From positions 160,001 to 224,000 of IMG/VR virus record IMGVR_UViG_3300020576_005257: a DNA stretch of 64,000 nucleotides, one strand, 5' to 3'. The position numbers and the translations under genes are program-made. Numbering within the stretch: the stretch's first letter is position 1; the number at the start of each line of letters is the position of its first letter. The notes below the pieces were generated by a model. That model saw only the letters and a list, made by a program, of their open reading frames with translations. It was not told the origin of the DNA and did no database searches. Shown here one piece after another: positions 21,657 to 55,563 of the stretch. The DNA is from a virus (taxonomy: Duplodnaviria > Caudoviricetes).

Positions 21657-21667
21657 ATCATAATAAA

Positions 21668-21732
21668 TAGAGGTTCCCCCGTTAGGAAGAACCTCTAAGA
21701 ATAAGTCTTCGGCCCCATTTTAACTAGGGGCC
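21668..21732 (-). terminator. Tandem hairpins after the capsid gene
   Basis: TAGAGGTTC/GAACCTCTA and GGCCCC/GGGGCC. Confidence 0.5.
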
Positions 21733-30241: not shown

Positions 30242-31473
30242 TTCTTTAACATCTGGGCCGCTTGTAAGGCTTTCATACTAGGATCTATGGGAGGGAATTT
30301 CTCAAAATCACTGCTCTTGATTCTTAGTGTATTTTTAACAGTCTCAAATAACACCTGTGGGTCTTTTAAAGATGATAAGTTTCTTTCTAATTGCCCCAAT
30401 ACATCAACAGCCTGAACAAATAATTTAGCATTGACATTCTGTTTAAGGTTATCAAATATTAAAGTTCTAGCTTCTGTGGACTGATAAAATTGTTGGTCAG
30501 TTCTGGAAATTTCTGATTCTATTTTTGTTAAAGACCTAAATAAAGCATTATCTAACATTCTTCTAAACTGGTAAATATGTGGATCAGGGGTCAGGATATT
30601 GTTAGAAGTCTCCATATCCTCAGTCCTATCTAACATTCCTTGGGTAAAGCCAAACAAAACTCCAAGATTTTGACTGTTAGTATTCTTAGCATACGATAAC
30701 ATACTAATTTGACCTATAACAGAATCAAGTGAATTTTCTAGGAGTTTAAACTGGTCAAATAAACTATCGATCTCTGTGGTAATTAAATAATTGGCTTGAT
30801 TGGAAAATTTCCTAATAAAATCAGGGTATTTTGTACTAAAATCACCAATACTATCAAAAAAACCATCCCCCAAAGAGAAGTTCTTAAAAGAATTGATGTC
30901 AGATAAGAAAGTTTGTAAGTGTCGTATAATGTTTTGATCTTTATACAACATTAAAGACAATAATTGAGAAGTAGATACCTGTTCAAAAAACCCAGTGTTC
31001 TGGTTAATAATGGGCAGATAGCTGCTTTGATAAGAGTGTTCGATTACTGCCACCTGTGCTCTTGCACGATAGGCATCTTTAATCAGAATAATTCTAGGAT
31101 CTTTTTGTCTTCTATAAACATCTCTTTCTACAATCTTCTGTATATTGTCTGGTGGGACTGGATTAGATTTATATGGTCCATCAAGAGGGGTAGTAAATTG
31201 GGTTCTTGCTGAGGAAAAGAAGGCATCAAAAACAATATCAGATTGATATTGTTTGGTAATATCATTTAAAAAACGATCATATTCTTCTCTTACAGCTTTG
31301 GCAGTATTAAAGACATCTAGTGCTAGTTGATTAGGAGGGGTTTCTTGTATAGTTCTAACAAAATCAACCTCAGTGCCCGCAATTGGTCCAACTTTATTAG
31401 AAATTTCAGATACAAGCTGATCAACTTTCTTCTCAATTGTTTTTGTATCTATGAATTTACCAAATGCACTCAT
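30223..31473 (-). CDS. Hypothetical protein
   Basis: 416-aa ORF overlapping neighbours. Confidence 0.7.
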   Translation of the reverse strand: MSAFGKFIDTKTIEKKVDQLVSEISNKVGPIAGTEVDFVRTIQETPPNQLALDVFNTAKAVREEYDRFLNDITKQYQSDIVFDAFFSSARTQFTTPLDGPYKSNPVPPDNIQKIVERDVYRRQKDPRIILIKDAYRARAQVAVIEHSYQSSYLPIINQNTGFFEQVSTSQLLSLMLYKDQNIIRHLQTFLSDINSFKNFSLGDGFFDSIGDFSTKYPDFIRKFSNQANYLITTEIDSLFDQFKLLENSLDSVIGQISMLSYAKNTNSQNLGVLFGFTQGMLDRTEDMETSNNILTPDPHIYQFRRMLDNALFRSLTKIESEISRTDQQFYQSTEARTLIFDNLKQNVNAKLFVQAVDVLGQLERNLSSLKDPQVLFETVKNTLRIKSSDFEKFPPIDPSMKALQAAQMLKNWSLKF

Positions 31474-33854
31474 TAAAAATTACTCCTGTTGTACCCAAAT
31501 GTATTAGTATCTAGTTCTGATCTATCGAAATAGAAACTGCTACCATCTCTGTCTTCTTTATCTTGAAGCATCAGTGTTTTCATTGTAGATCTGAACATAT
31601 CTTCATCATTAGGAACCTGAATGACCCCCAATCTCTCAAAAGTCTTATTATTTTCAGGGTAAGGGTTTTCGTAATACTGGAAAATGGCCCACATAGTCAT
31701 TAACCAGTTATCTATATAGTGTTCTTCCCCACCAGAATATTTAGTAGTTCTCTTGGTTTCTCCTTTGATTTTGAAGTTAACAAACTGTTTTTTGTAATCT
31801 TCTCTGTGTAAAGGAATCCTAATTAAATCTTTTTGGAACTTGTTTTTAAGCATATCAACAAGATATGGCTTAACCTGAATTGAAATATCCTCTTCAGTTA
31901 TGGGATCAGGGACTTTAATTGATTTATTAAACGGCAGTTGTAAAAGTTTTGAATGAAGTTGTAGATCAGTTCTTCGATTAGCCACAGTAATTAGATCTTC
32001 CCATTGCTTCATTCCAGACCCAAGATCCACTACAATAAGTTCTGGGTCAAAAACCTCTACTAGTTTTTCAATTTCCTCAATAGCAAAGGTATAAGTCATT
32101 TCGCTGGGCGGAACTTCTACATGATAAAGATGTCTGGCAGTTTTATTAATAGGATCATATTGGGCAAGTAAAATATTTGTACCTGCTTGAACTTTATCCC
32201 AGTCAACTGTTAAGAAGACAGGTAAATTTGGATTTCTATACTTAGAACTTGGCTCCCAATCTTCTGAGAACACACTTTCAATATCTTCTAACCTGAAAAC
32301 ACAATTATCAGCCTGAGTGACTTGCAGTAAATACTCAGTCTTCCAGATCTCGTCTGGAACTGATAACCTCTCCTCCTCAACCATTTCCTCAGTATAATCT
32401 GGGTTTTGATCAATTGGGACTTTTATTACGGTCTCTTTTTTAGTGGGCTCTAGAAGATCAATTTTCTTGTAATAATAACCATCTGCTCGGTTCAGAGTTC
32501 CTGCAATATAGCATCTAATCTTATCTCTACGAGTAAGGTCACCTCGCATAATAGGAATAAGAACTCGCCAATCTTCGTCAGAGAATCCCTGAGACTCGTC
32601 CAAAATACAAATATCAGCTGTGATACCTCTTAATTTATCAGGAGCAACACCATTGACACCAAGAATATGTCCCTCAATAAATGATCCAGTAATAAAAGAT
32701 CTAAGTGGAGGTGTTGTTGTATTTCCTACAGGACTCTTGAAACCTTGTAGAAGAGGATTAGCCGCAATCCAGTCATCTAAAACATCAAAGAACTCTGTAA
32801 TTTGAACAGATGATGGTGCAAAGAGATGTATTTTTTTATTTTGTTGCGTTACAGCATGCCACAACGCAATAACAATAAAGGAGAAACTATTGTGAATTAT
32901 GGTATTATTGGCAACAAAATTAGTGTCTGGGTGCCCTACACATAACTCATAAACATCTTTGAGTCCTGCGTCTTTCTTATTTACAACTAAATCCCATCTA
33001 CGACTACTTTTAGTTTCAAATACTTCTACATCTGCATCTAGGATAACACCCAGAAAAAGATTACGCTCTAACTCTTCATCTATGCGTAAAATCCCATCTT
33101 TTGTAACTCTGGAATATATTTCAAAACGATATAAAAGATGTTGAACATCAAATGCGAGATTTTTGTTAAAAAATGATAAAGTAATATTCTGATTTTTATG
33201 GTCAAATCTACCATAATAAGAGAATAAAGCCTTTAAATAAAGATGTAAACAATAGTTATTGTAGTTAAAAATTTCATCAGGAATTCTGCTTTTATTAATT
33301 GTAGCTTCATAAGTTTGAAGGATTGTTTCCTCACTTACTTCGTTATCCCCCTCTGGAAATTTACTGGCTGCAAGTAATTCTTGTCCAATTCGTACATCCC
33401 CAGCAGGAATCCACCCCATTTTCCTTTCCAACACCATATGGTCTGTAGAAAGGGTTAAAGCTACCCCCGATTCAAGTCGAATACTAACACACAGTTTCTT
33501 TCCAGAATACTCCCACTCAGCAATACTGGACTCTACAATATTTTTCTCAAAATCAAAACAATATGTATTCTTTACTTTAGCAGCTTGATCTATACGAAGA
33601 GGTCTGCGGGTAGTAGAATCTATAACGTATGAGTTCCCTGCTGCTGACTTACCTCCACGACGATGTACACATACCCAAGTATCTCTCTTCTTGGAAGAAA
33701 GAACTATTCTTTGAGGATAATTGGCCTTAAATGCAGTAAAAGGAGGCCCAGGGTTGGGGCTCTTTAAAAATTGCTCAGCAAAACTAAGAGGACTACTCCT
33801 AGCTTTGATTAGCCTTTCTTTATCTTCTGGAGAAAGCTTATCAAACTCAAACAT
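31473..33854 (-). CDS. terL: Terminase large subunit with intein
   Basis: YPQ, RRGGK/S Walker A, LRG..ILDE Walker B, TVDWD nuclease motif. Confidence 0.93.
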   Translation of the reverse strand: MFEFDKLSPEDKERLIKARSSPLSFAEQFLKSPNPGPPFTAFKANYPQRIVLSSKKRDTWVCVHRRGGKSAAGNSYVIDSTTRRPLRIDQAAKVKNTYCFDFEKNIVESSIAEWEYSGKKLCVSIRLESGVALTLSTDHMVLERKMGWIPAGDVRIGQELLAASKFPEGDNEVSEETILQTYEATINKSRIPDEIFNYNNYCLHLYLKALFSYYGRFDHKNQNITLSFFNKNLAFDVQHLLYRFEIYSRVTKDGILRIDEELERNLFLGVILDADVEVFETKSSRRWDLVVNKKDAGLKDVYELCVGHPDTNFVANNTIIHNSFSFIVIALWHAVTQQNKKIHLFAPSSVQITEFFDVLDDWIAANPLLQGFKSPVGNTTTPPLRSFITGSFIEGHILGVNGVAPDKLRGITADICILDESQGFSDEDWRVLIPIMRGDLTRRDKIRCYIAGTLNRADGYYYKKIDLLEPTKKETVIKVPIDQNPDYTEEMVEEERLSVPDEIWKTEYLLQVTQADNCVFRLEDIESVFSEDWEPSSKYRNPNLPVFLTVDWDKVQAGTNILLAQYDPINKTARHLYHVEVPPSEMTYTFAIEEIEKLVEVFDPELIVVDLGSGMKQWEDLITVANRRTDLQLHSKLLQLPFNKSIKVPDPITEEDISIQVKPYLVDMLKNKFQKDLIRIPLHREDYKKQFVNFKIKGETKRTTKYSGGEEHYIDNWLMTMWAIFQYYENPYPENNKTFERLGVIQVPNDEDMFRSTMKTLMLQDKEDRDGSSFYFDRSELDTNTFGYNRSNF
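32889..33647 (-). mobile_element. Intein S70-N322 in terminase Walker A, with a degenerate LAGLIDADG remnant
   Basis: GK|SAAG..STDH..VYEL..NFVANNTIIHN|S; removal restores RRGGKSFSF. Confidence 0.9.
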
Positions 33855-36130: not shown

Positions 36131-36231
36131 TAATAATTAGTGTATACTTTACAGACCTCTATTTATTCCTTTAAATATGTTTTTATACAAAGAAATAGAG
36201 GCTAAATGAACCCTATTTATGGTAGACATCT

Positions 36232-39200
36232 ATGAATCCCCTAGATAATGGTATAGAAAATATAGATGATTTAGATTTAGGACAAGCCGCCCCCAGCCTA
36301 AATGTTATCAAAAACGTCCCAGTTAATGGGCAAGACACCAATGTCTTTTTCCGTGATATTGGTGGTAAAACTCCAGAAGTAGCTTCTAAGTTAATTGAGC
36401 TTGTTAATAGGAATAAGCTCTCTGGTGGCAAACAATCTCAACTTATTGCTGCTCATTTAGCTGAGAATGAGAAGTTCTTTGAAAGGGCTTTACTTCTTAA
36501 TTCTGTTGAGGCTGGAAGGATTGATGTTGGAGCAGCATTAAAATCTTTCTTTGCCAGTAAATTTACTGTAGCAGATGCCCAGAGAAGACATGGGTACGAA
36601 ATTGAAATACTCAGAGCTAAGGTTATTGCCTCAACAACAGGCATACCTCTCCATAAAAAAGCATTACAACAACACCAAGCATATTTAGCTGGAAATGGAC
36701 AACATCCTTTAGGAGAATTACGCAAATCACCCATTGACCCATATAAAAATACTAAGGGTTATTATCATATTGAAAGAGATAAAAATGGTAACAACGTCAT
36801 TTACCTTAACGATATCCAAGCTGGTGCTATGGTTGTTGATATGGACGGTGACGAACTTACTGCTACCATAGCTCGTAAGAGAGATAAAAGCGGGAATATC
36901 ATAGAAGAGTTTATGATTCCTGTTAAAGAACCATTACTTCAAAATCTACCTGTTTTTCGTAATATTAACTACGAAAAAGGTGTTAATTTTGATAAAACCA
37001 AGCTATTTGGTAAGTTTACAGGCTTAAATTTCGGAGATCTGGGTGATAGGTTAGATCCAGACAGCATTAAATCAGCCTTTAGTAATGAGCTTTCTTCCAG
37101 AAAATACTCGGTTGTAGGTGATTTTTTAAGGGCTTATGATAAGCCAGAGTCCAGAGCAGGGTTTGGTGGGGTTCGTAATTTAGATTCAGTAAGAAAATAT
37201 ATAGCGGAAAAATCATTAGCAGCAAATGAAACTGGTATTTTCACTATAGCTCACGACCAAAGAGCTATAATTACCAACCTATATGAGTTGCATAGAATGA
37301 GAGAGGCTGAGCCTAATAAGTATTTAAGTATGCTTAAAGAGCAGCAAGAAGCAGCCAGAGCACAGCTAGAAATTCTAAGACGAGAACCAAATAAAACTGC
37401 TAAAGTAATTGGTGGTAAAGCTTTTGGTGTATATAATGCTCAAGGTGAGTTAATTCAAGCAAATGAAGAAACATTTTTAGAAAGTATGCTTCATTTTAGT
37501 GATGACCCCACTAAAAACCTTAATTTACGCAGAAAAACTGAAATTGACTACATATCCAAACATATGCTTGACGACCCAGAGCGATTAGACGATATTGAAG
37601 TCAGATCGTTGAAAGTTGGACGTAATGCTAATGCAATTTCTAGGTCCGATGCTTTAAGTATTGTTGACACCTTCAAAGAATATGTAAATGATCCTTTGTT
37701 AATGAGAGTTAAAACAATTACTCAGCTTAATGATAGAATTCACGCCTCATTAATTAGTTCTTTAGTATCAAAAACTGATGATGAAACCTTCTTTGATGTA
37801 ACTAACAGAGCTTTCTTAAATGTCAACATAGATGATATTCAGACTAGAAAAGGGGATATTGAACCACGTTCTCCTATTAATTATGGGGATTATTCTGGAA
37901 GAAGACAAGGAACCACTTTAGGTAGGTTATCACAGGTGCCTGTGGTTGATAATAAACCACTTATTCAATTCCAAGAACTCAATGGTTTTGAGGGTATTGT
38001 TACAGCTGATCATCTAAAAGATAATATTAACTATCGGCCAGCACCTTTAGCTATCACCATTAGAAATGCTCAAGGTCAAGTTGTAGCCCCTCAAATTGGC
38101 GGTAGTAATGGTAATGATATTACCCAAGTTAGTTTATTTGGTAATATAGCTAGCCCCTCAAATGGTGGTGTTGCTCTTCATAATCGCAGAGAATACCTAG
38201 CTACAGAGCTAGAAAGAAGACTCCAAGAACAGTATGGTAATACTAGACAATTTGGTGATACTTCTGGTGAACTTGAATTTCATACTATTCTACAAAGATT
38301 AACTCAAGATAGTGATACTAAACGACAAATTGCTTCTTCTTACGGTATTGATCCTAACAACATAGATCAGGTCAATTCGTTTAGCAGAACCATGCGTCAA
38401 AAGCTAGAAACTGCTGGTGCTGGAAGTGCTTTACACCAAGAAATAGCCTTAAAATACGATGTTACTCATAGGGGAGCTATGCTTACCACTATTCAGAAGC
38501 ATCTTAATGATATTATAAGCCATGCTAACGGTTTAACTGATGCAGCTGTAGAAATTGATCCTAATACAGGGTATATTAAGGCTGCTAATCCTCTTGATGT
38601 TCGCAGAGTATCAGCAAGATATGGTCTTGATGTAAGAGGACAAAACCTCTCTCCAGAGGTAAAAACCGACACCATTATGCAAGCTCTGCACAGTTTTGGT
38701 GGTTTTATTAGTAAAAATACATCTAGTGGTTCTGATAGATATATGCAGATGGCTTTTGGATCTGCTCCCGGTGATATTAGAACCGTTGGAATGGATCTAA
38801 GATATTTTACACCTTTAGAGCAAGCTAAACGACAAACAGACATTCAAAGACAAATGGCTGGGGGTATTAGGCTTGGTAAAGCTCGTATGGTGTTGGCTGA
38901 TACTGAAATTCCTTTAGAATATTTCAGAATGACTGATCCAAATGCTTCTATGGGTCTAAAAAGACCTGATGAAGGTGTGATTTTAATGTCTCGTAGTTTT
39001 AGAGACAGATCTATTGAGCAGATTAAAACTAAACTACAAATAGGTCCCACTTTGACCCAAGATAAATTAGGTGGGTCTATGGAAGATTATGTTGCCTATA
39101 TGTTAGGTGACAGACAGCTTGCTAATGGAAGAAGATTAACTAGACTGGAAGAACAACATCTTCGTACTAAATTCCAAAAAGAATTTATGGGTATGTGGGA

Positions 39201-40014
39201 TAAGAAGCAGATAGGTGGTAATACTATTTATCATCTTAACGAAAAGGGCATGGATACTACTTTAAACAGAGTATTTAAAATGGGTTCTCTTTTCGGTGAT
39301 AAAGCAGTTGTTCACACAGTAGATGATATGAGAGATGCAGAAGGCAAATTAATTGATGTCTTGATGCATATTAACCAATCTAGATCGCGTGGTAATGAAA
39401 TTCCCAGATATCAACAGGTACTCCAAACAGCTATTAATGAAGGAAGACTTAGTATTGATGATTTGGGAGAAGAATTTAGAGCTGGAGCCAGAGGTGGTCT
39501 TATTAATTTTGAAGAGGTCTTTGAAAAACACGGACACGACCAAGATACCTTTCTTTCCAGAATTAAAACAGGCTTTATTGATCCACTAGAAAAAGTTCAA
39601 CAAAATATTACGTTAACTGATCGTGGGGCAACTCAGGCTTTTAGTGGTTTAGTGGCAGAAACAGATGATCTATTTGCTGCTGGTAACTACGGTGATGTTT
39701 ATAAGAGCTTTAAGGAAACTAATTTAACTAGTAGAACTCTCGGTAGACCCAAATTGCTTGGTAAAATTGCTAATGCGTTAGACGATGAATTTGGCAATAA
39801 TATTGCTGGTATAGGGGCACAGTTTATTTTCCATGCCATGGGTTCTTTTGCCAAACAAATGTCAGAAGCTAATGTGGTTGGTGCAGGAATTAAAGAAAGT
39901 TTTAGTGCTGCTGAAATAATAAACTCTTCCAAGCAAGTTGTCCGTGGTGGACGAGAAGCTGGAAGAGCTTTACAGGATAGCCTAATGAATGAGGCTGGGA
40001 TACCTAAACTTTAA
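36232..40014 (+). CDS. Single-chain two-barrel (DPBB) RNA polymerase with permuted domain order, probably virion-packaged
   Basis: IYLNDIQAGAMVVDMDGD (D203-D207); PDEGVILMSRS (913); FKMGSLFGDKAVV (K1016, K1024); EGKLIDVLMHINQSRSRGN. Confidence 0.8.
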   Translation: MNPLDNGIENIDDLDLGQAAPSLNVIKNVPVNGQDTNVFFRDIGGKTPEVASKLIELVNRNKLSGGKQSQLIAAHLAENEKFFERALLLNSVEAGRIDVGAALKSFFASKFTVADAQRRHGYEIEILRAKVIASTTGIPLHKKALQQHQAYLAGNGQHPLGELRKSPIDPYKNTKGYYHIERDKNGNNVIYLNDIQAGAMVVDMDGDELTATIARKRDKSGNIIEEFMIPVKEPLLQNLPVFRNINYEKGVNFDKTKLFGKFTGLNFGDLGDRLDPDSIKSAFSNELSSRKYSVVGDFLRAYDKPESRAGFGGVRNLDSVRKYIAEKSLAANETGIFTIAHDQRAIITNLYELHRMREAEPNKYLSMLKEQQEAARAQLEILRREPNKTAKVIGGKAFGVYNAQGELIQANEETFLESMLHFSDDPTKNLNLRRKTEIDYISKHMLDDPERLDDIEVRSLKVGRNANAISRSDALSIVDTFKEYVNDPLLMRVKTITQLNDRIHASLISSLVSKTDDETFFDVTNRAFLNVNIDDIQTRKGDIEPRSPINYGDYSGRRQGTTLGRLSQVPVVDNKPLIQFQELNGFEGIVTADHLKDNINYRPAPLAITIRNAQGQVVAPQIGGSNGNDITQVSLFGNIASPSNGGVALHNRREYLATELERRLQEQYGNTRQFGDTSGELEFHTILQRLTQDSDTKRQIASSYGIDPNNIDQVNSFSRTMRQKLETAGAGSALHQEIALKYDVTHRGAMLTTIQKHLNDIISHANGLTDAAVEIDPNTGYIKAANPLDVRRVSARYGLDVRGQNLSPEVKTDTIMQALHSFGGFISKNTSSGSDRYMQMAFGSAPGDIRTVGMDLRYFTPLEQAKRQTDIQRQMAGGIRLGKARMVLADTEIPLEYFRMTDPNASMGLKRPDEGVILMSRSFRDRSIEQIKTKLQIGPTLTQDKLGGSMEDYVAYMLGDRQLANGRRLTRLEEQHLRTKFQKEFMGMWDKKQIGGNTIYHLNEKGMDTTLNRVFKMGSLFGDKAVVHTVDDMRDAEGKLIDVLMHINQSRSRGNEIPRYQQVLQTAINEGRLSIDDLGEEFRAGARGGLINFEEVFEKHGHDQDTFLSRIKTGFIDPLEKVQQNITLTDRGATQAFSGLVAETDDLFAAGNYGDVYKSFKETNLTSRTLGRPKLLGKIANALDDEFGNNIAGIGAQFIFHAMGSFAKQMSEANVVGAGIKESFSAAEIINSSKQVVRGGREAGRALQDSLMNEAGIPKL

Positions 40015-40367
40015 TCTTCTATTTTACATGTGACTTCATACCAAATAGGAGGACTACCAGGTCTTGGTATGCCTCTATCTTTTTCCCAGGGATATGGGTT
40101 TAAGGGATTATAAGGAGTAGGTCTTGGGTTGGTAATTGGTTGGGGTAGAGGTGGTAATGTGGGAATATCTAATCCCGCATAAATAATCACTAAATCAGAA
40201 ATAGCCACTAATTTCTTTAAAGAATTATTAAGGTTATTTATTTTGGTAGAATAAGTTTTAACAAGTGCCTGTGTGTCAACAGAAATTTCTATTAACTCTT
40301 GCTCAATACAAGCTACAATTTCTATAAAATTGGCTTTAGTTGTAAATTTGATATTATAAACTGACAT
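40011..40367 (-). CDS. Hypothetical protein with Pro-rich C-terminus
   Basis: Shares TTAA stop overlap with the convergent RNAP gene. Confidence 0.5.
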   Translation of the reverse strand: MSVYNIKFTTKANFIEIVACIEQELIEISVDTQALVKTYSTKINNLNNSLKKLVAISDLVIIYAGLDIPTLPPLPQPITNPRPTPYNPLNPYPWEKDRGIPRPGSPPIWYEVTCKIED

Positions 40368-41424
40368 TACTATCGTCTCCTAGTACGAAAACCTTGAATT
40401 GTTTAGCTTGATCTTCATTTTTTGGTTCTTCTTCTAAGTATACGTTCCTACCAATTAAAGAGTTTCTACAAGCTTTGATTGAATATAGTGAGGATCCATC
40501 CATTACAATTGAATTTTCAATATGAGTATTCTCAATAAACACATTATTTCCAATTGAAGTAAATGCTCCCACATAACTATTGGCTATCACTGTATTTTCT
40601 CCAATAATAGCTGGTCCTTCAATTAGTGAATTGATAACTTTAGCTGTTTTATGTAAAATTACGTGGTCTGTAACGACACTATCATAAATTTCACCTGCTA
40701 AATCTTCTGAAATAGACGATAAAACCACCTCATTTGCCTCAATTAGAGCCTCACTACTGCCTGTATCTTTCCACCAAGCCTCATTAATGGTGTGATGAAG
40801 TACAGTGTGCTTGTAGTCCAAGAGTGTCTGTATAGCCTCAGTAATTTCGTATTCTCCTCTTTTTGAGGGCAATAATTTCTCAATTGCGGCATGAATGATA
40901 GGAGAAAAAAGATAAATACCCACCAAAGCGAGATCGGATTTGGGTTCTACAGGCTTCTCTACGAGATTCACAACAACATCCCCCTCAATTTCTGCTACTC
41001 CGAATTGGCTGGGATTTTCTACTTGCTTTAAAAGGATTGTAGCAGCTGGATTTTGTAGTTTAAATTCTTGTATAACTGGAGATATATCTGCATTTATGAG
41101 GTTATCCCCTAAATACATTACAAATGGATCGTCCATCAAGAAAGGATGGGCAGTTTTAACAGCGTGTGCGAGTCCTAGAGGCTCATCTTGTACAATATAG
41201 GTAAAAGTACACCCCCATCTCTCTCCATCGCCACAGGAGCCAATTATAGGGCTATCATGTTCCGATATAATAATGCCAATATTAGTAATTCCAGCCTTTA
41301 CAAGGGCTTCAATCCCATATTCCACCACAGGTTTATTAGCAATAGGTATAAGTTGCTTAGAAATCGAGTAGGTAAGGGGTCTAAGCCTTGTTCCTTTACC
41401 ACCTGCAAGTATTAATCCTTTCAA
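40354..41424 (-). CDS. rfbA: Glucose-1-phosphate thymidylyltransferase, long form
   Basis: LAGGKGTRLRPLT, KQLIP, LGDN, EKP, RGEYEIT, WWKDTG. Confidence 0.95.
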   Translation of the reverse strand: MKGLILAGGKGTRLRPLTYSISKQLIPIANKPVVEYGIEALVKAGITNIGIIISEHDSPIIGSCGDGERWGCTFTYIVQDEPLGLAHAVKTAHPFLMDDPFVMYLGDNLINADISPVIQEFKLQNPAATILLKQVENPSQFGVAEIEGDVVVNLVEKPVEPKSDLALVGIYLFSPIIHAAIEKLLPSKRGEYEITEAIQTLLDYKHTVLHHTINEAWWKDTGSSEALIEANEVVLSSISEDLAGEIYDSVVTDHVILHKTAKVINSLIEGPAIIGENTVIANSYVGAFTSIGNNVFIENTHIENSIVMDGSSLYSIKACRNSLIGRNVYLEEEPKNEDQAKQFKVFVLGDDSNVSL

Positions 41425-42458
41425 AGGTCTTCTCCTAAACTTTTAGAGTAAAACTGAGTGACAAAGTTCCTATAATCATCAGTTTCCTGAATTTCTTTCC
41501 ACCAATTCTCGTTTTCTTTGTACCAATTGATGGTTTCTTTAAGTCCATCATCAAAATTTTTCTTAGCTTTCCAGCCTAATTCTGTTTCAATCTTATCAGT
41601 ACAGAGAGAATACCTCATATCGTGGGCATTTTTTCTCGGATCTTCAATGTATTTAATCAAATCCTCCCCCTTTTCAGTCTCAGCAAGAAGAATTTGTACA
41701 ATTTCCATATTGTTCCTTTCATTTACATCACCAATATTGTAAATTTCCCCAATTTTCCCTCTCTCCAAAACTGAAAGTACACCTTCTGCGTGATCTTCAG
41801 CATGAATCCATTCTCTTACAGCCGATCCATTACCATAAACAGGAATTTTTTTGTTTTCTAGAAGCCTGGTAAGGAAAAAAGGAATCAGTTTTTCTGGGTA
41901 TTGGTTAGGACCATAGGTGTTTCCCCCTCTCGTAATACAAACAGGGGTCCCAAATGTATTATGGTGGGCTAGTGCGATTAATTCACCCCCAGCCTTAGCT
42001 GCTGAGTAAGGAGTATTAGGATGAATAGGATCAGTTTCCTTAAAACTACCGTTCTTAATACTACCATATGATTCATCAGTAGATACATGAACTAGCTTCT
42101 TAACAGAAAATTTATTGGCTAAATCACAAAGAACTCCAACTCCTTCCACATTTGTCTCAATAAAAGATGTAGGATTAGTTAGTGATCTATCATTATGGGT
42201 CTCAGCCGCAAAGTTTACAATATAATCAGGAACTTCTTTTTCAAACCAGGAAGATAAAAGAATTCTATCTTGAATTAATCCTTTTACCAAAGGAATATTT
42301 GGAGGTAAGTTATGAGGATTACCAGCATAGGTAAGGGCATCATAAACAACAATGCTGGCTTCTGGATACTTTTGTTTAACTAACTTAGCAAAAGTAGAAC
42401 CAATGAAACCAGCACCACCGCAAACCAATATAGAAGATTTAGTTAAATCTACTTTCAT
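41421..42458 (-). CDS. rfbB: dTDP-glucose 4,6-dehydratase
   Basis: GGAGFIGS, LTYAGN, AAETHNDRS, STDE, YSAAK, YPEKLIP; start moved to 42458 because the upstream part is tRNA. Confidence 0.95.
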   Translation of the reverse strand: MKVDLTKSSILVCGGAGFIGSTFAKLVKQKYPEASIVVYDALTYAGNPHNLPPNIPLVKGLIQDRILLSSWFEKEVPDYIVNFAAETHNDRSLTNPTSFIETNVEGVGVLCDLANKFSVKKLVHVSTDESYGSIKNGSFKETDPIHPNTPYSAAKAGGELIALAHHNTFGTPVCITRGGNTYGPNQYPEKLIPFFLTRLLENKKIPVYGNGSAVREWIHAEDHAEGVLSVLERGKIGEIYNIGDVNERNNMEIVQILLAETEKGEDLIKYIEDPRKNAHDMRYSLCTDKIETELGWKAKKNFDDGLKETINWYKENENWWKEIQETDDYRNFVTQFYSKSLGEDL

Positions 42459-42472
42459 TACAGAAGTAGTGT

Positions 42473-42549
42473 TGGAGGACCAAGAGGGAATCGAACCCCC
42501 GAAAATCACCAGGTTGCAACTGGTTGCCTTACCATTTGGCTATTGGTCC
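42473..42549 (-). tRNA. tRNA-Cys(GCA)
   Basis: GGACCAA/TTGGTCC acceptor, ACCAG-TTGCAAC-CTGGT, U73, encoded CCA. Confidence 0.9.
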
Positions 42550-47797: not shown

Positions 47798-48028
47798 ATG
47801 AAAATCTCACCTATCGTTCTCATCATCACAGCATGTGTCATCATGGTCGGCTCTTGGACTATATTGAAACTTCAGTATCAGGTATACGAAAAGACTGCCT
47901 ACACAGAAGGCTACACACAAGCACTCAAGGACATCCGCTCGTCATTCAAAGGATCTGTCCCTGCTGAGGTGGAGTACAAAGGCAAAGCATTATTAGCTGG
48001 TGCTGATGCTACCAAACTCGCTCTCTAG
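47798..48028 (+). CDS. Small membrane-anchored protein
   Basis: MKISPIVLIITACVIM; start reassigned. Confidence 0.6.
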   Translation: MKISPIVLIITACVIMVGSWTILKLQYQVYEKTAYTEGYTQALKDIRSSFKGSVPAEVEYKGKALLAGADATKLAL

Positions 48029-48056
48029 TCTCTCGTCACACACATAGGTAACTACT

Positions 48057-48191
48057 ATGAAATTCGCTCGTAACAAAACCAAGTCTCGTAATGCTCGCCG
48101 CTACTACCGTGGTGAAACGACCGCTCGTAATCACAAGCCTATCCGCAAGGACAGACTTCACAACCACAACACAGGAGTCTGCACAGCATGA
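48057..48191 (+). CDS. 44-aa Arg/Lys-rich peptide
   Basis: MKFARNKTKSRNARRYYRG..; ATGA overlap with the next ORF; not in the ORF track. Confidence 0.5.
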   Translation: MKFARNKTKSRNARRYYRGETTARNHKPIRKDRLHNHNTGVCTA

Positions 48192-48394
48192 TGTCCTGGC
48201 TCTATGACCAAGCATCTCCAACTACATCCAACCTTTTAAAGGCTGGGTACACGTTGGCAGAAGTCAACAAAATCAGATGCAGTGAAGGTCGCACCTGTAC
48301 GGGGTGTAATCAACCCATTCACTGGTCTCGGTACAACGAAACGTTGTGTCCCAACTGTCTCTCTGAGGAATACGCACAGCAATGCTCGGCGTAG
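48188..48394 (+). CDS. Small zinc-ribbon protein
   Basis: CTGC..CPNC. Confidence 0.6.
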   Translation: MMSWLYDQASPTTSNLLKAGYTLAEVNKIRCSEGRTCTGCNQPIHWSRYNETLCPNCLSEEYAQQCSA

Positions 48395-48455
48395 CTCTCA
48401 TCGCCATCGGACTCCTCTTCGGAGGGGTCTACTACTCTTGTCTCGGTAAACACTC

Positions 48456-48713
48456 ATGAAAGTTCCCGCATTCTTCGGCTCAGCACTACGTGCTCCTTCC
48501 CACATCATCTCCACACTTGCTATCAAGCAACAGGAGATCAAGTCTCAACCAAGCCAAACAGCAATGGCTCTCGACCGCATGGAGAAACTCCAAGCAAGGG
48601 TCAACGAAACCAAGCTCACTCTGGATGAAGCCAAGGACGCAGTTACTCGTGCTCAACTGAGTTACGATACGGCTGTCCAAAACCTGGCTATCTTCCGGAA
48701 TTCGATCCGCTAA
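48456..48713 (+). CDS. Coiled-coil hypothetical protein
   Basis: Followed by a terminator. Confidence 0.65.
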   Translation: MKVPAFFGSALRAPSHIISTLAIKQQEIKSQPSQTAMALDRMEKLQARVNETKLTLDEAKDAVTRAQLSYDTAVQNLAIFRNSIR

Positions 48714-48719
48714 CAAAAT

Positions 48720-48760
48720 CCTACTACCTGGTACTAACTGGGTAGTAGGTAAAATTTTTT
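48720..48760 (+). terminator. Intrinsic terminator
   Basis: CCTACTACCTGGT/ACTGGGTAGTAGG followed by a T run. Confidence 0.65.
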
Positions 48761-48933
48761 CTCGTCCGACCGATATGTGGCATACCTCTCCGTAAAGGGG
48801 AGGATGGATGGTATGACCTACAAGCTGAAGCTACTCGCTTCGCTCGTCGGAGACCTGCGGTAGGTTGGGGGAGAGGGGAGTCTTGGACCTACCATTAGAC
48901 TCTCCCTTAGTCTAAAATCAATCATGGGTATTT

Positions 48934-49026
48934 ATGCAACTAATCCTGCTGTTCCTAATCTTCGTCGTCGTTCCGGCTTTACTGATCGGACTCGTCGTCC
49001 ATCTACTGGACAAATGGCAGATCTAG
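48934..49026 (+). CDS. 30-aa single-TM peptide
   Basis: MQLILLFLIFVVVPALLIGLVVHLLDKWQI; not in the ORF track. Confidence 0.55.
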   Translation: MQLILLFLIFVVVPALLIGLVVHLLDKWQI

Positions 49027-49688
49027 ATCTGCCAGGAGCCACCTTGTTCACCAAGGTTCCCCCGAAGGGGGTGGCTCGGGGCCACGAAGTGGCCCACATA
49101 AAGAACAGCACACTTGCTTTCTTTACTCTCTTATTCTATACAGGGAGTTTCTTTACTTCACCTATGGGTGAGTCAATTACTGCTCCTTCAGGAGATGTTA
49201 ATTGTTACTCATGGTCGAAAACCTCTGGTTTTCTAGACCTTTCCCATTCTGAGACTTCACTAAAAAATCCCTCTGTCTAAAATAATTTATTTGAGCCTAG
49301 GGGTCTATGTTAAGTCTCTCTCATGTAACCCTTAATAGCCCCCAATCCGGGGGGTGTTAATTGTTACAACACTTGAAAAAGTACCTTTTTCACCTAGTTT
49401 GACTCATCAACTAGGCTTTTTGCTCTCTCTGTACTAGTCTTCTGGTTTACCCATAGATCAATTACTCCTCCCATGGGGGGGATAAAAACAATGATCTCTT
49501 CCAGAATACAAGTACAAACTCTACCTATGTGCAACCTTTAGGTTGCACGAGAAAGAACTAACCACGTATGTGAGTTGGTAACTTCACTAAGTTAGCTTTC
49601 TTTCTCCCTACTGGAAATATAGACTTCATGTCTTGTTTCCCTCTACACACTCTATTCTATTCTCTCTCTTCTCTTTCTCCTTTCATCT

Positions 49689-50075
49689 ATGCCCCGTATC
49701 TACTGGGCTACCTATTCCAAACTCTCTCACAAAACTATGAAATACTCTGATCTCCGTCCTGGTGATACTCTCACCTATGCTACCTACGTCTCTCGTGTTG
49801 ATTACCTCGACATCCCCAAGTATTGGATGGAGTCTTCAACACTTCGAACTACCAACCTATGGGGTAGTATGGTCAGCACTACATATATTGAAGTTGCTGA
49901 TAACCTTCCTTCTGACATTCTCATGGTTCGTCGTAATGACAAACCAATCTATGTCAAGGGTCTACCTTATCCACTTCCCATTCCCAAACCTAAAGGTGAC
50001 ATCCGCAAACGGCTTGATGCTCACCGTGTCCTTAAGTCTTCTTCTACAAAGACAAAGGGATACTGGCATCTATGA
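49689..50075 (+). CDS. Hypothetical protein
   Basis: ORF with regional codon style. Confidence 0.6.
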   Translation: MPRIYWATYSKLSHKTMKYSDLRPGDTLTYATYVSRVDYLDIPKYWMESSTLRTTNLWGSMVSTTYIEVADNLPSDILMVRRNDKPIYVKGLPYPLPIPKPKGDIRKRLDAHRVLKSSSTKTKGYWHL

Positions 50076-50273
50076 AGTACTCTTCCAATTCTTTGGATTA
50101 GTCTTCAACAACATAGTGAAAAAAATCAACTATGGGTATATTTCAGACCCATAGCTTTTCACTATTTCTCATCCTTCCAGGTTGTGCATTACAAATGCTT
50201 CTACAACCACTCTCTCTAGGTCACGGAGGTACCTTTACTTGGGGCTAGGTTCCACTTAGCCCCACTCTCACTC

Positions 50274-50609
50274 ATGTACAACTTTGGTCAATTCATGGGG
50301 CACCTTGGTGTCCTCATCTCTCGTATTTTCACCGAAGCATATCGCCAATCTCAGTTCACTGAATTGGAGGATGCTGTTACTGGTAGAAAACCCAAACCTA
50401 CCCTTCAGGTAGTTAACACTGACTACGGCACTATCACCGTTAAATACGGCGATGAGCAAGTAGTCCTTGAACGTGTACGTCGTACTGACTCTTGGCAACC
50501 CATCGGGATGTTCCAAGGGGAAGTAGGCTACCTACGACCTGGCAAACTACCAATCCCTGGAAGGGATGCTGCCATCTGCTGGGCTAAATCCTACTTAGGT
50601 GCAGCCTAG
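50274..50609 (+). CDS. Hypothetical protein
   Basis: ORF with regional codon style. Confidence 0.65.
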   Translation: MYNFGQFMGHLGVLISRIFTEAYRQSQFTELEDAVTGRKPKPTLQVVNTDYGTITVKYGDEQVVLERVRRTDSWQPIGMFQGEVGYLRPGKLPIPGRDAAICWAKSYLGAA

Positions 50610-50631
50610 TCTCACCTGGAGTCTCACACCT

Positions 50632-50856
50632 ATGATGTTCCTCATCTCACTCATGCCATTCTTGGCAATCAACTTCTTCACTGTACTCTGTCTCATGACA
50701 GGGGACTACTCATCTGCAAGGGGTTATTTCATGACCTCCTTGCCATTCCTCTCCTTCGTTATCTTGGTTCCATTCTTCCACACCTTGTGGAGACGGAACC
50801 TTAAGCTCCTCAAAGAGCTTAAAGTCAAACAAGGAGGAGATAATGATCTCCTCTAA
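50632..50856 (+). CDS. Two-TM membrane protein
   Basis: Hydrophobic; GGAG upstream of ATG 50632. Confidence 0.6.
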   Translation: MMFLISLMPFLAINFFTVLCLMTGDYSSARGYFMTSLPFLSFVILVPFFHTLWRRNLKLLKELKVKQGGDNDLL

Positions 50857-51424
50857 CAGCACTGAATCTCTCTTCCCAGAGGACTTCCCTAATGTGTATC
50901 GCATTGGCATCACTGGACACCGACCACGGGGGTTACTTTCAGTACCCAACCATGGTTATGTGGACTATGCCTACTGCAATACCAAACTCCTTGAGTTCAT
51001 GCGGTCAACTATGTTCCCCATGATACTCAACAAATACCCAGATCCTGTCTGTATCTCAGGCATGGCTCTGGGTGCTGATCAAGCTTACATGCAAGTTGCT
51101 CAAGAGCTAGGATTCAAGACTGTTGCTGTTGTACCCTACCCGGAACAACCCAACATCTGGCCTAAAGCTGCCCAGGAACACTATCACCAACTGTGTGCTA
51201 ATGCCACAGAAGTGATTACAGTGTTTCCTTCAGGCGAAGCTGGCCTTCTTGATTTCCGTCAAATGCTCTTTATACGCGACAACCGTCTTGTTGACCGATG
51301 CACCAATATGGTTGCACTACACAATGGCCTACCTTCTGGTACTGGTCATACTGTAGGCTATGCTCACCAACAAGGCAAACCTGTCGCCAACTTCTGGAAG
51401 CTATGGAGACAATATCTCAAATGA
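50843..51424 (+). CDS. YspA/DUF1273 SLOG-family protein
   Basis: ITGHRP, ISGMALGADQ, RDNRLVD, SGTGHTV. Confidence 0.85.
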   Translation: MISSNSTESLFPEDFPNVYRIGITGHRPRGLLSVPNHGYVDYAYCNTKLLEFMRSTMFPMILNKYPDPVCISGMALGADQAYMQVAQELGFKTVAVVPYPEQPNIWPKAAQEHYHQLCANATEVITVFPSGEAGLLDFRQMLFIRDNRLVDRCTNMVALHNGLPSGTGHTVGYAHQQGKPVANFWKLWRQYLK

Positions 51425-51744
51425 AGAAAACTCACCCTACTCTTACCAGTCACCTCAAAGATTTTGAAGTCAATATCAAAACTTTTGAGGAGGCAGTCGG
51501 TACGTCTGCCGATATCACTGGTTATACGCTCAAAATGCGTACCCATTTTCACACTCTGCATGAGAAGGGCTTTATAAGCCCTGAACTTTATGCCAAGTTC
51601 AACAAGCATCTTGATTCCATCAATGATACTCTCCATGATCTTGGTCACGAAGCCTTCATCGTTTACGATTCTCTCACTGAGGAACAACTGTTCCTTGTAC
51701 AACTCACTCAGAACTCAGTTCCACCTGAGTTCATTGATCGTTAG
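51421..51744 (+). CDS. Hypothetical protein
   Basis: ATGA overlap with the SLOG gene. Confidence 0.65.
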   Translation: MKKTHPTLTSHLKDFEVNIKTFEEAVGTSADITGYTLKMRTHFHTLHEKGFISPELYAKFNKHLDSINDTLHDLGHEAFIVYDSLTEEQLFLVQLTQNSVPPEFIDR

Positions 51745-51826
51745 CAAGCATTCGCTTGCCATGTCCTAGCACTCCAAAGGAAGTGCTTACCCTAGCTATG
51801 CTAGGGGTTGTCTCACTAGTAACATG
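51735..51826 (+). promoter_or_regulatory. Three-hairpin leader, copy A
   Basis: TGATCGTT..3 hairpins..ACTAGTAACATG. Confidence 0.55.
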
Positions 51827-52465
51827 CAACACGTTCGATATGGTACAGCTCTGCTGACCCTTCCTACAATTCCTGCTCCCACTTCTGGTGGTGAGCCTCT
51901 ACAACATCCTGTCGTTCGGCATCTTCTTGCCGGACGTATTGACGATGCAATCGTTGGTATTCGAGAGCTGGGTCTTACCCAAGCTCGCCATGCTAATGGT
52001 ACCACTGTGTACTCTGGTGAAGGAATTGAAATCCTTCACACCACAATTGCATTGTCAGCTGAACTCAAACCTGACACATTCTCCCTAGACATCAACGACC
52101 GCTGTGTCATTAATGACAAACAGGGACGGTCTATGGACTGGGACTGCGATGGTGATCCCATTCAACTTATCCTCTTCAAGGAATTAGTTGATGGGGAAAT
52201 TATCACCAAAGCTATTCACGTCAAATTTCCAGCCCCCAAACTTCCACCTGTGTGGAAGATGGTTCCTCTGCCAGAACCTGTTCTCAAAGGTCTTTCCAAA
52301 GCCAAGGCAACTTCATTGATTAATGAAGGTCCTCCAGTTCCTGACTGGATTGCTGCTATGAAAAAGACTTTTACTCCACAGCCTATTGGCACCGTCACCA
52401 TTAGATGGTGGAACCATATCATGTCTCTTTATCATCAAGCATTTCTTAATGCTTCTAACAACTGA
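51824..52465 (+). CDS. Split two-barrel RNA polymerase, DxDGD-containing subunit
   Basis: VINDKQGRSMDWDCDGD (D107-D111)..GEII..VKFP..PIGTVTI aligns with the 36232 protein. Confidence 0.75.
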   Translation: MQHVRYGTALLTLPTIPAPTSGGEPLQHPVVRHLLAGRIDDAIVGIRELGLTQARHANGTTVYSGEGIEILHTTIALSAELKPDTFSLDINDRCVINDKQGRSMDWDCDGDPIQLILFKELVDGEIITKAIHVKFPAPKLPPVWKMVPLPEPVLKGLSKAKATSLINEGPPVPDWIAAMKKTFTPQPIGTVTIRWWNHIMSLYHQAFLNASNN

Positions 52466-52563
52466 TCGTTGCTCTCTTAGAGCACTATTCAAAAGCTCCA
52501 ACGTCGGTTGGACTTCCCGTCGGATGCTAGTCCGATAACTCACGCCTGGTTACTAATAACATG
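52463..52563 (+). promoter_or_regulatory. Three-hairpin leader, copy B
   Basis: TGATCGTT..3 hairpins..ACTAATAACATG. Confidence 0.55.
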
Positions 52564-54342
52564 AACCTCAGTCTGTTCAAATCAATTGTTTCTCCTTTGT
52601 CACAGGCTTTCCGTGACGACCTTGAAGGTCGCACTATGAAAGCCGCCCGTAAGGGCGAAGGAGCTGAACGTCCTCTCATCTTCGACCTCCCAGTCGAATC
52701 AATGGATCCAATTACTGCCGTATTCTATGGTAGTCGTGGAGCCATCTCCCAATCTGCCAATCTTGGCTATTCCTGGGATGAGGTGGAACTTGCGGCCAAC
52801 GGCCATATGCAATTCACCGAAGCCCGTAAACACAAAGATCCTAATCCAACCCGTCAGGCTTGGACTGATGATCCTGTTCAGAGTGATTATTCACTCGTTG
52901 CTTGGCTCATCAAAGGGGGCTACTTGCAAGTTCAAGAACTTGCTGCCACCCGTAAAGGTGTTCCACCTGCTATCTCTGTGTCTCTCTTCAATCCAGCTAC
53001 TGGAAAACATTCGGCATTCGTCTGGAAGAAGGATATGGGTGGTGATCACGTCGGTTTCTCAACCGTTCTGTATCCCGCCTATGTCTACGAACCTTCCACT
53101 GGAGAAGGCCGTGTAATGAGTCCTCTCGAACACTTGTCACTTTACGTGACTCGTCACTATGGTTGCTCTTGCAACATCACTACTCTGGGCTATGTCTCAG
53201 CCATCTTCAAAGGTGGCGGAGCTTATGCCCTTGAGTCATGCCTCAAGAAGTTCGTTGAACTTTTTGGCGATGTTGTCCCATCTACCATCACAGATGGTAG
53301 GCACACACCCTACAAGAATGCGAAGTTCTTCGCTTCTCGTACTGTTGTTGTGGACCATAGCTCCTTCCCCAGTTTCATGGGTAAGGAAACCAGCATTGAT
53401 GTAATGATGCGTATTACCGCCCAAGCTTCCAAAGCTTTTGGTGGTATCCATTATCCATCAACTGGTAGTCGTCCTTCTCTCCGCAAGCATTTCCTTGCTG
53501 GCGAGAATCGTTTCCCAGAGTTCTGCTCTGGTATGAGCGAAGCTCATCGACCTGGCCGCAATCGTTCTCTGCTTGTTCGCACTCTGCGTACCAGCAATAT
53601 GAAGGTTGCACTTGTGGTCACTGATTCCCTTCAGTGCTACATCACTCCCACAGGTATCGAGAAATCAAAACCTGAAATTGATACCTTCCTTCCACAGGTA
53701 TCATTCGAGCCAGTTGAAAACTGGCCTATGCTTGAACTCTCCAGTTGGTCTGGTAAGACCACTACTGTTTGGGTTTCTCCAAACCCTAAACAAGAGTCCA
53801 AGCGTGTTGGCAAGCTCCTTGACCAAGAGGGGTCTCGTTTCGAGCCCCGTGAGGTTGGACAATGGACTACTGAAGATGGTACTCCCATCGACGTTCTCTA
53901 CTCCACTGCTGAAGCTGAAGACAAAAAGCTCATGGCTTTCTTTCTCAGCAAAGCCACACCTCAGACCATCATTGGTCCAAAGGGTGAACAGATCAAAACT
54001 TATGTTTTTGATCATCACCTATTCCGTTCCGGTGTCGCATCCGAAAACATTCAACCACGTTTCTTGAAACAGTGGACTGTTGAAAGTTTCACAGGCAAGC
54101 TCCTTGCTTGTGTACTTCAGGATGAAGACCTTCGTTTCACAACCCGGAACAACTTCCAGATGCTAAGAGCTAAAGCTCTTTATGAGTCAGCAGAACTGCT
54201 TGCTCATCAACCAGAGGGTACTGAAGTGGAGCTTCTCAAAGAACTCCCATCTGACTTGTCAGATGAACAACTTCAAGATGAAGACACTCACGAAGCACTT
54301 ACTGTGCCAATCGGTGAGATTGTCGGCATCGAAGTCCTCTGA
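52561..54342 (+). CDS. Split two-barrel RNA polymerase, beta-like subunit
   Basis: DDLEGRTMKAARKG; RVGKLLDQEGSR (K418, R426); EDGTPIDVLY. Confidence 0.7.
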   Translation: MNLSLFKSIVSPLSQAFRDDLEGRTMKAARKGEGAERPLIFDLPVESMDPITAVFYGSRGAISQSANLGYSWDEVELAANGHMQFTEARKHKDPNPTRQAWTDDPVQSDYSLVAWLIKGGYLQVQELAATRKGVPPAISVSLFNPATGKHSAFVWKKDMGGDHVGFSTVLYPAYVYEPSTGEGRVMSPLEHLSLYVTRHYGCSCNITTLGYVSAIFKGGGAYALESCLKKFVELFGDVVPSTITDGRHTPYKNAKFFASRTVVVDHSSFPSFMGKETSIDVMMRITAQASKAFGGIHYPSTGSRPSLRKHFLAGENRFPEFCSGMSEAHRPGRNRSLLVRTLRTSNMKVALVVTDSLQCYITPTGIEKSKPEIDTFLPQVSFEPVENWPMLELSSWSGKTTTVWVSPNPKQESKRVGKLLDQEGSRFEPREVGQWTTEDGTPIDVLYSTAEAEDKKLMAFFLSKATPQTIIGPKGEQIKTYVFDHHLFRSGVASENIQPRFLKQWTVESFTGKLLACVLQDEDLRFTTRNNFQMLRAKALYESAELLAHQPEGTEVELLKELPSDLSDEQLQDEDTHEALTVPIGEIVGIEVL

Positions 54343-54356
54343 CATCTGTCACAATT

Positions 54357-54395
54357 ACCCCCGTAGGTGCAAGCCTACGGGGGTGTACATTTTTT
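54357..54395 (+). terminator. Intrinsic terminator
   Basis: ACCCCCGTAGG/CCTACGGGGGT followed by a T run. Confidence 0.7.
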
Positions 54396-54690
54396 CTTGA
54401 AACTATTCACGGTCCTTCTGGCATTCGCCTCCAGGAACATTCATAGTTTCACTAGGTTAGACTTCTAACATTTAAAATGTTTTAGACTTCTTGGAATACT
54501 GTTTCCTAGAGGTAGAAAAATCAATTTTGGGTAACAGCCTGAGCTATGCTCTCGTCACTTACCAATACTTTTTTTTGGCTAGCCCTACCACTGGGTGTAG
54601 ACAATCTCAAGTACTGGTATAGACTACGAGTAAAATCAATCTCGGGTTCTGTGAAACCCAAATTCAAAACAGAGGTCTAACTTCAAAACA

Positions 54691-55563
54691 ATGATTACCA
54701 AATCACCTTCCGCCACTCTCAATCTGAGTGCTCTCCGTACTGCTAACGAAGCAGTCGTTCTGGAGAACTTCACGATTGACCTTACTCTCTCCACTCCTGA
54801 GCCAATCGCAGAAGGTCCATTCAAGGGCCTTCCTCAAGTCGTTGGCGAAGGCATCTCCTTCCGGGGCACCGGAGGCGTCGAAAACCGTGTGTATCCCACA
54901 CGCATCGAAGTCCGAGCAGTCGAGTCTTCCAAGAATCTTCTTGAAGAAGACGAAGACGCTGAGGACCTCATCGGCTTCATCGGTCAACGAGTGACCACAG
55001 TTCATTCTGTCCTCTTCGGACGCAAGATGATCCCCGATCCCGATGCCAAGGTTGGCAAGCCCAAGATGATCTTGAGCCCTGACGAAGTGGAACTCCAGAC
55101 CATGCGTACTGGTCTTTCGTTCAACAAGAACTCGGCCAATCCCAACATGCGTTCTGTGTCTTTCATGCGAAAGAACACCAACTTGTTCATCCCACCAGGT
55201 GACAAGGCCGCAGCTGCTGAAGCAGCCGACTCCGAATCCAAGGCTTCTGCTACTAGCGAAGTTGGTAAGCGAGTCCTCAATGCGTTCAATGCAATTGAGC
55301 GAGCTGTTCGTGACTCCTTTGAGGGCATTGACCTCAAACGATTCGAACAGGGCGGCGATCTCGCTCATCTCAGCAAGGAAGTCAAGGACGAATTCCGTGC
55401 TTACGACACAGCTGTTCGCAAAGTCGCAGCTCATCTCAAGAATTGGAAGCGTCCTTCAACTGATGCCAAGCCGAGTGTCACAAACACTCCAGCTCAGGCT
55501 AAGGTTGAAAAGACCGAGCCAATGTCCATTGACGATCTGGAGGCAGAAGTTAAGTCTTCTTGA
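54691..55563 (+). CDS. Hypothetical protein, probably highly expressed
   Basis: 290 aa, strongly biased codons, followed by a hairpin at ~55577-55607. Confidence 0.8.
   Translation: MITKSPSATLNLSALRTANEAVVLENFTIDLTLSTPEPIAEGPFKGLPQVVGEGISFRGTGGVENRVYPTRIEVRAVESSKNLLEEDEDAEDLIGFIGQRVTTVHSVLFGRKMIPDPDAKVGKPKMILSPDEVELQTMRTGLSFNKNSANPNMRSVSFMRKNTNLFIPPGDKAAAAEAADSESKASATSEVGKRVLNAFNAIERAVRDSFEGIDLKRFEQGGDLAHLSKEVKDEFRAYDTAVRKVAAHLKNWKRPSTDAKPSVTNTPAQAKVEKTEPMSIDDLEAEVKSS

Follow-up and report, generated by a model that had tools for sequence, protein, structure and literature searches.

We analysed a 64,000-nucleotide stretch of phage DNA (positions 160001-224000 of the IMG/VR virus record IMGVR_UViG_3300020576_005257; hereafter the window), in which a single gene encodes P0001, a 1260-residue candidate for a single-chain two-barrel RNA polymerase. 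The host record is one IMG/VR virus entry of 234,927 bp with a CheckV completeness of about 95%, and on this length and completeness we regard it as a jumbo phage. DNA of the phage was found in sequencing runs from two studies, with those of one study labelled riverine metagenome; no RNA run is listed among the public runs that contain it. Across the first 47,400 or so positions of the window, the P0001 gene is the sole convincing gene on the + strand and the rest lie on the − strand, as an earlier note on this DNA had remarked for the region, and the guanine-cytosine (GC) skew reverses sign exactly across it. Just upstream lies a − strand head module encoding the terminase large subunit, portal, protease/scaffold and major capsid protein, homologous to that of Bacillus phage 0305phi8-36 (phmmer: terminase 5e-27, portal 4e-30, protease 5e-9, capsid 1e-33). 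The divergent position of the polymerase gene, heading the portal-terminase module, is kept in relatives at 54%, 38% and 26% identity. The gene and the features of its product (residue numbers in P0001) are as follows.

36232..40014, + strand: P0001 gene, candidate single-chain two-barrel RNA polymerase, 1260 residues; one open frame, homologues of 1181-1318 residues
36592..36966, + strand: residues 121-245, β-rich domain, proposed β′-type barrel; secondary structure the same in both models
36838..36852, + strand: residues 203-207, DMDGD, candidate Mg-binding Asp triad; D203, M204, D205 and D207 invariant (9/9), 204-207 at the predicted interface
36925..36942, + strand: residues 232-237, KEPLLQ; K232, P234 and Q237 invariant
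37033..37890, + strand: residues 268-553, helical region with two long helices (about 317-384), from models and alignment; only generic helical-hairpin matches
37891..39705, + strand: residues 554-1158, miniature, collinear RNA polymerase β/Rpb2-like module, from the predicted fold
38959..38976, + strand: residues 910-915, β-type acidic motif KRPDEG; K910, R911, E914 and G915 invariant, 911-916 at the predicted interface
39277..39303, + strand: residues 1016-1024, K-x7-K, candidate counterpart of Escherichia coli β K1065/K1073; both lysines invariant, paired by hhalign
39340..39396, + strand: residues 1037-1055, EGKLIDVLMHINQSRSRGN; hhalign pairs this stretch with an E. coli β segment
39706..40011, + strand: residues 1159-1260, C-terminal tail, helical, Gly-rich and of low confidence, from model and alignment

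When 1.84 billion representative proteins were searched exhaustively with a profile, 11 relatives of P0001 were returned, all metagenomic; a word-index search yielded one further relative and a search of IMG/VR two loci, and none was found in the JGI metagenome contigs searched. All relatives uncut by contig ends are 1181-1318 residues long with both halves fused. One protein, P0013, was considered as a split form of the family and rejected because it is truncated by a contig end. Whether queried with P0001, with the family profile or with each member, Pfam, PHROGs and PDB sequences gave no match, blastn and tblastn searches of 50,697 phage records with P0001 likewise gave none, and ESM Atlas feature searches with whole P0001 or with residues 110-320 returned nothing useful.

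The family alignment comprises nine full-length members at 23-54% identity to P0001 and contains only 45 invariant columns. In the N-terminal half, I138, P139, Y177, Y178, D203, M204, D205, D207, K232, P234, Q237 and R300 are invariant in all nine and, in the C-terminal half, K910, R911, E914, G915, K1016, G1022 and K1024. Invariance among so few fixed columns, down to 23% identity, indicates that the motifs are real and strongly constrained. The earlier note had singled out as polymerase signatures the segment I190-D207 with D203/D205/D207, PDEGVILMSRS (912-922), K1016-x7-K1024 and EGKLIDVLMHINQSRSRGN (1037-1055); each is located at those residues, and the conservation that it had expected of the motifs in homologues is borne out for the triad and the lysines. 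Its β acidic motif needs amending: the motif is present and its KR--EG frame is conserved, but the invariant acid is E914 and not D913, which is found in 6 of 10 sequences, the remainder having Asn or Gly there. At the C terminus, the most distant homologues (P0007, P0008 and P0009) are longer by 50-100 residues, with an extension that ends in a Gly/Ala/Val-rich hydrophobic segment, membrane-spanning in appearance, followed by basic residues; P0001 is without this segment.

The β part of the polymerase reading is firm. A template-free AlphaFold2 model of residues 50-1240, built from a 12-row alignment, has a mean predicted local distance difference test score (pLDDT) of 64.6 and reaches 75-90 across most of residues 550-1150. 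When this model was compared with the PDB using Foldseek, all of the best 50 matches were RNA polymerase β chains (top E 6e-4), and the β C-terminal subunit of the phiKZ non-virion polymerase superposes on it with a root mean squared deviation of 4.0 over 190 residues. In an unbiased fold search, nine RNA polymerase β families rank top with a clear gap beneath; no QDE-1, crAss gp66, P23-45 or PolD chain occurs in its best 50 rows, a list that may leave out similar chains, and their absence among the matches listed points to an affinity of P0001 to the cellular, multisubunit clade. Profile alignment converges on the catalytic region, as the sole hhalign match between the family profile and the 1342-residue E. 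coli β runs from K1065 to SRMN (E 0.04), pairing K1016/K1024 with K1065/K1073 and the P0001 stretch EGKLIDVL...SRGN with the β stretch ending in SRMN. Against a 65-sequence proteobacterial β alignment, the match (E 0.0096 over 156 columns) beats all reversed-query controls and is marginal. The acidic residue of the second barrel, corresponding to Rpb2 D837, is a fixed glutamate (E914) in this family, where the usual residue is Asp. Through this half, P0001 very probably belongs to the two-barrel polymerase superfamily.

The N-terminal half would supply the β′ part, which we infer from its motifs, their setting and a predicted interface. The element order of a β′ barrel is strand, strand, helix, NADFDGD and strand. 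In the P0001 models, residues 122-229 comprise a strand (122-134), I138-P139, a helix (142-152), a loop of variable length, strands 175-182 and 188-192, a helix (194-203), DMDGD and strands 208-217 and 223-229, such that the secondary structure around the Asp triad fits the β′ order in both of our models. With the N-terminal profile as query, hhalign found a single match in the full 1407-residue E. coli β′, residues 446-470 around NADFDGD (E 0.06), which aligns D203/D205/D207 with D460-D464. Downstream of the triad, KEPLLQ is possibly, on sequence, a counterpart of the β′ GEP...QD or RxP motif. The poorly conserved residues 455-545 (approximate limits), modelled with low confidence, look like a joint between two fused modules.

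To place the halves relative to one another, we predicted a complex of residues 790-1160 with residues 105-400 (the partner) and Mg, using a family alignment for each. The interface score ipSAE was 0.82 (runs 0.79, 0.83 and 0.82) compared with 0.00 for the best of three controls; by calibration of the tool, the ipSAE mark is attained by 58 of 80 solved complexes and by 2 of 110 mismatched pairs. The runs share at least 55% of their contacts, with a partner pLDDT of at least 59. In the confident interface, the Asp loop (204-207) lies opposite residues 911-916 (R-P-D-E-G-V), K1016 and 1024-1026, and, as the interface accounts for roughly one residue in four of chain 1 and one in five of chain 2, all four catalytic elements would fall within it by chance only a few times in a thousand, by a rough estimate. 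Sequence comparison reveals no similar complex. The Asp triad and the lysines are thus predicted, in these models, to meet at the barrel interface. The earlier note had set the distance between the triad and K1016/K1024 beforehand as one of the tests on which its reading could fail, and the predicted docking puts both at one interface.

Several observations weigh against a β′ barrel in the N-terminal half, and against so complete a polymerase. Both models are weak across this half (mean pLDDT 64.6 and, for a second model of residues 80-560, 55.6), with the β-rich domain (120-245) reaching about 70-82 in the second. The 80-560 model found no β′ or double-psi barrel match by Foldseek in PDB or BFVD, by VIA on the Foldseek hits, by VIA-wide or in the ESM Atlas, the β-rich domain not having been searched alone, and returned only generic helical hairpins. 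When the N-terminal profile was aligned by hhalign with a 71-sequence proteobacterial β′ alignment, the match (E 0.1 over 57 columns) was equalled by reversed controls (0.07-0.5). Eight residues have been called universal in two-barrel polymerases, including an R-x-P ahead of the triad (Rpb1 R446/P448) (PMC2919709). No conserved Arg-x-Pro is found upstream of the triad in the family alignment, in which the prolines kept throughout are P139, part of GIP, and P234, part of a K-E-P that follows the triad; the universal β Asp is moreover replaced by Glu (E914) (PMC2919709). Finally, the docking score is no measurement and reflects how confident the model is in placing two parts of a single polypeptide. 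The N-terminal domain would, on our reading, nevertheless adopt the β′ double-psi barrel fold. The permuted two-barrel polymerase put forward in the earlier note thus stands as to order, its DxDGD part lying nearer the N terminus than its lysine part and published forms being opposite, whereas its β′ fold is not established by the fold searches or by profile comparison with reversed controls.

This order sets P0001 apart from the fused and single-chain two-barrel polymerases, for which we found no description of a β′-first arrangement in the literature searched. QDE-1 carries its lysine barrel (D709, R738, K743) ahead of its Asp barrel (R962, P964, D1007-1011), and YonO-type proteins have a bipartite domain in common with QDE-1; the yeast killer-plasmid protein Orf6 is an Rpb2::Rpb1 fusion and Corynebacterium glutamicum NCgl1702 a β::β′ fusion (PMC2919709). 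The crAss-like gp66 and the P23-45 proteins gp96 and gp64 likewise carry the double-psi β-barrel (DPBB) B before DPBB-A (PMC10770324). With its triad at 203-207 and its lysines at 1016 and 1024, P0001 has the order opposite to that of the YonO/QDE-1/gp66/P23-45 clade. We regard the P0001 group as a new family, with a probably new connectivity, inside a known superfamily.

Each of the known systems shares some properties with P0001. The single-chain two-barrel proteins phi14:2 gp66 and Neurospora QDE-1 (PDB 6VR4 and 2J7N) resemble it in overall plan, with the order DPBB-B then DPBB-A, and gp66 travels in the virion and is injected, as is proposed for P0001. The phiKZ and AR9 non-virion polymerases (PDB 7OGR/7OGP/8QUE and 7S00) have a β C-terminal half fold common to cellular β and P0001, but consist of four or five polypeptides with β and β′ each split, whereas P0001 is one 1260-residue chain; sequence similarity between them and P0001 is undetectable. 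Both gp66, at 2180 residues, and QDE-1 are larger than P0001. YonO of the Bacillus prophage SPbeta, with a like enzyme in 0305phi8-36, is, as P0001 would be, a phage-encoded single-chain two-barrel RNA polymerase of about 100-140 kDa, and its Asp triad is essential by experiment (PMC5467207). The YonO/QDE-1 type nonetheless has the lysine barrel first (PMC2919709), reversed in P0001, and the β-like half of P0001 resembles a whole multisubunit β, unlike the QDE-1 clade; it has no sequence match to YonO. Thermus phage P23-45 divides the work between very divergent two-barrel polymerases, virion gp96 and non-virion gp64 (PMC10770324), and several candidate sets are likewise present in the P0001 genome; unlike P0001, gp96 forms a fusion with the tape measure protein, and both P23-45 proteins have DPBB-B before DPBB-A. 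Orf6 and NCgl1702, as P0001 would, combine the two largest subunits of a cell-type polymerase in a single polypeptide that has shed much of the non-core domains, with β first, unlike P0001.

No canonical RNA polymerase Pfam family was detected in the genome. Outside the window, at genome positions 50556-53469 (L006 1057-3973), lies a candidate split polymerase, a pair of genes for proteins of 419 and 476 residues with the β′-like gene first; the 419-residue protein contains TRFPNLG and GDGDGD, and hhalign detected no similarity of either protein to the P0001 family. A second pair lies within the window.

51824-52465, + strand: 213-residue gene product with DWDCDGD; hhalign with the P0001 barrel E 0.0019, no Pfam match
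52561-54342, + strand: 593-residue gene product with K-x7-R and EDGTPIDVL, which resembles an E. coli β segment; no Pfam match

The alignment of the 213-residue protein with the P0001 barrel spans the IND motif, DxDGD and K-x-P, and the 593-residue protein aligns weakly with P0001 residues 757-894 (hhalign E 0.023); judged from these matches, the two neighbouring genes resemble a smaller paralogue divided in two. Searches of the records of two distant relatives for the other candidate polymerase genes gave none, an uninformative result as single-sequence queries were used and the records are incomplete. As the β′-then-β gene order appears to recur in the phage, a fusion of adjacent genes already so ordered would be the simplest and most economical origin of the 1260-residue form.

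The 213/593-residue pair is among the + strand genes of a compositional island (48001-56000) with a GC content of 0.46-0.48, compared with 0.33-0.43 elsewhere (with the exception of a 0.475 bin at 22-24 kb), which may represent foreign DNA or a separate expression class. In the head module, the terminase large subunit (793 residues; 31473-33854, − strand) has sub-threshold intein-splicing and LAGLIDADG signals at residues 106-322, and the terminases of relatives bear larger inteins at the same site (1079 residues in relative L004). The P0001 stop codon overlaps that of a convergent − strand gene for 118 residues (40011-40014), so that a terminator would not fit between the two; in L001, the closest of the relatives checked, the gene that follows likewise abuts the polymerase gene stop, and in L003, L004 and L089 it begins 49 to about 600 bases beyond. 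Directly downstream (40354-42509, − strand), genes for a sugar-1-phosphate nucleotidyltransferase with a hexapeptide-repeat tail and a nucleotide-sugar epimerase suggest phage-directed sugar-nucleotide synthesis. Farther away lies a 2076-residue open reading frame (4009-10239, − strand) with no Pfam match and then a gene for a 380-residue protein with a near-threshold calcineurin-like phosphoesterase signal.

The divergent intergenic region ahead of the gene contains a stem-loop.

36156..36201, no strand assigned: inverted repeat CCTCTATTT ... AAATAGAGG, upstream of P0001; RNA fold −12.1 kcal/mol, z −2.8

Similar hairpins recur between genes at 2543-2567, 21650-21690 and 36156-36201, with arms AAATAGAG(G/C) and (G/C)CTCTATTT. 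CTCTATT, cited in the earlier note as a sign of late expression, finds no support as a late promoter: its 22 copies, compared with 14.5 expected, are reached in 4 of 100 shuffles, such that it is not enriched, and copies often form the 3′ arm of a hairpin, including that of the 36156-36201 repeat. Instead of promoters, the recurrent hairpins may represent terminators used in common or stem-loops with a regulatory role; sigma-70 and terminator scans gave background levels only. From gene position alone, P0001 would be expressed late and packaged into virions. In jumbo phages that have two sets of polymerase, one set is usually carried in the virion (PMC7824862, PMC7598289), and for this reason a virion-carried early polymerase is a reasonable guess for P0001, one that we advance tentatively, by analogy, and hold as rather less probable than its opposite.

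Taken with the invariant motifs and the secondary structure, the predicted interface leads us to consider P0001 probably a complete, β′-first, single-chain two-barrel RNA polymerase. In such an enzyme, a reduced β′-like module (residues about 120-550) would supply the Mg-binding triad D203/D205/D207, a reduced collinear β-like module (554-1158) would supply E914 (with D913), K1016 and K1024, and the two would pack into one active centre extending the 3′ end of RNA on a DNA template; P0001 would accordingly be catalytically active and DNA dependent. The principal alternative, which we regard as unlikely, is that only the C-terminal half derives from a polymerase and serves as a β-type subunit partnering a separate β′-like protein, for example the 419-residue or 213-residue DxDGD protein. 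In its favour, the N-terminal part has no structural match to β′ and a profile signal that only equals the controls, and stand-alone DxDGD proteins are indeed encoded in the genome. Each stand-alone pair, however, has its own β-like partner adjacent, and in P0001 the halves are fused in every full-length homologue, with an invariant DMDGD that sits in a β′-like strand-helix-loop-strand setting and is predicted at an interface with E914, K1016 and K1024 of its own chain.

The remaining explanations carry less weight still. Dead enzymes usually lose their catalytic residues, whereas the triad, E914 and both lysines belong to the small set of 45 columns that stay fixed down to 23% identity; this makes it improbable that P0001 is an inactive descendant of a polymerase that keeps the fold only, such as a virion internal or ejection protein or a nucleic-acid-binding factor, despite the adjoining structural module, the missing R-x-P arginine, the change of the β Asp to Glu and the terminal hydrophobic, membrane-spanning-like segment of distant homologues. 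Marginally less probable is an active two-barrel enzyme with another job, such as a QDE-1-like RNA-dependent RNA polymerase, a primase or a PolD-like DNA polymerase. The superfamily contains such enzymes (PMC2919709, PMC7281927, PMC10770324) and substrate choice is unreadable from motifs, but the structural neighbours listed (the best 50) are exclusively DNA-dependent multisubunit RNA polymerase β and its phage or viral derivatives. We give hardly any credence to chance matches in a non-polymerase protein: the lack of Pfam, PHROG and PDB sequence matches would fit, yet nine RNA polymerase β families head the unbiased fold search with a clear gap below, the motifs are invariant and hhalign independently selects the catalytic segments.

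Two-barrel RNA polymerases transcribe all cellular genomes, and the limits to which they can be stripped down and rearranged bear on the origin of the polymerase itself. At slightly short of an even chance, P0001 would represent an undescribed architecture class with the β′ module first, a virion-delivered early polymerase in the form of a single chain of about 140 kDa from the cellular β/β′ lineage, fused from in-order mini-genes, in a jumbo-phage lineage with up to three independent miniature two-barrel polymerases. If the β′-first reading is true, a working enzyme of reversed order would mean that chain connectivity is free and that fusions arose independently, and P0001 would offer a compact, one-gene polymerase of the cell type for structural and engineering work. 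More broadly, a jumbo-phage lineage distantly related to 0305phi8-36 may conduct all of its transcription with several miniature polymerases invisible to annotation pipelines.

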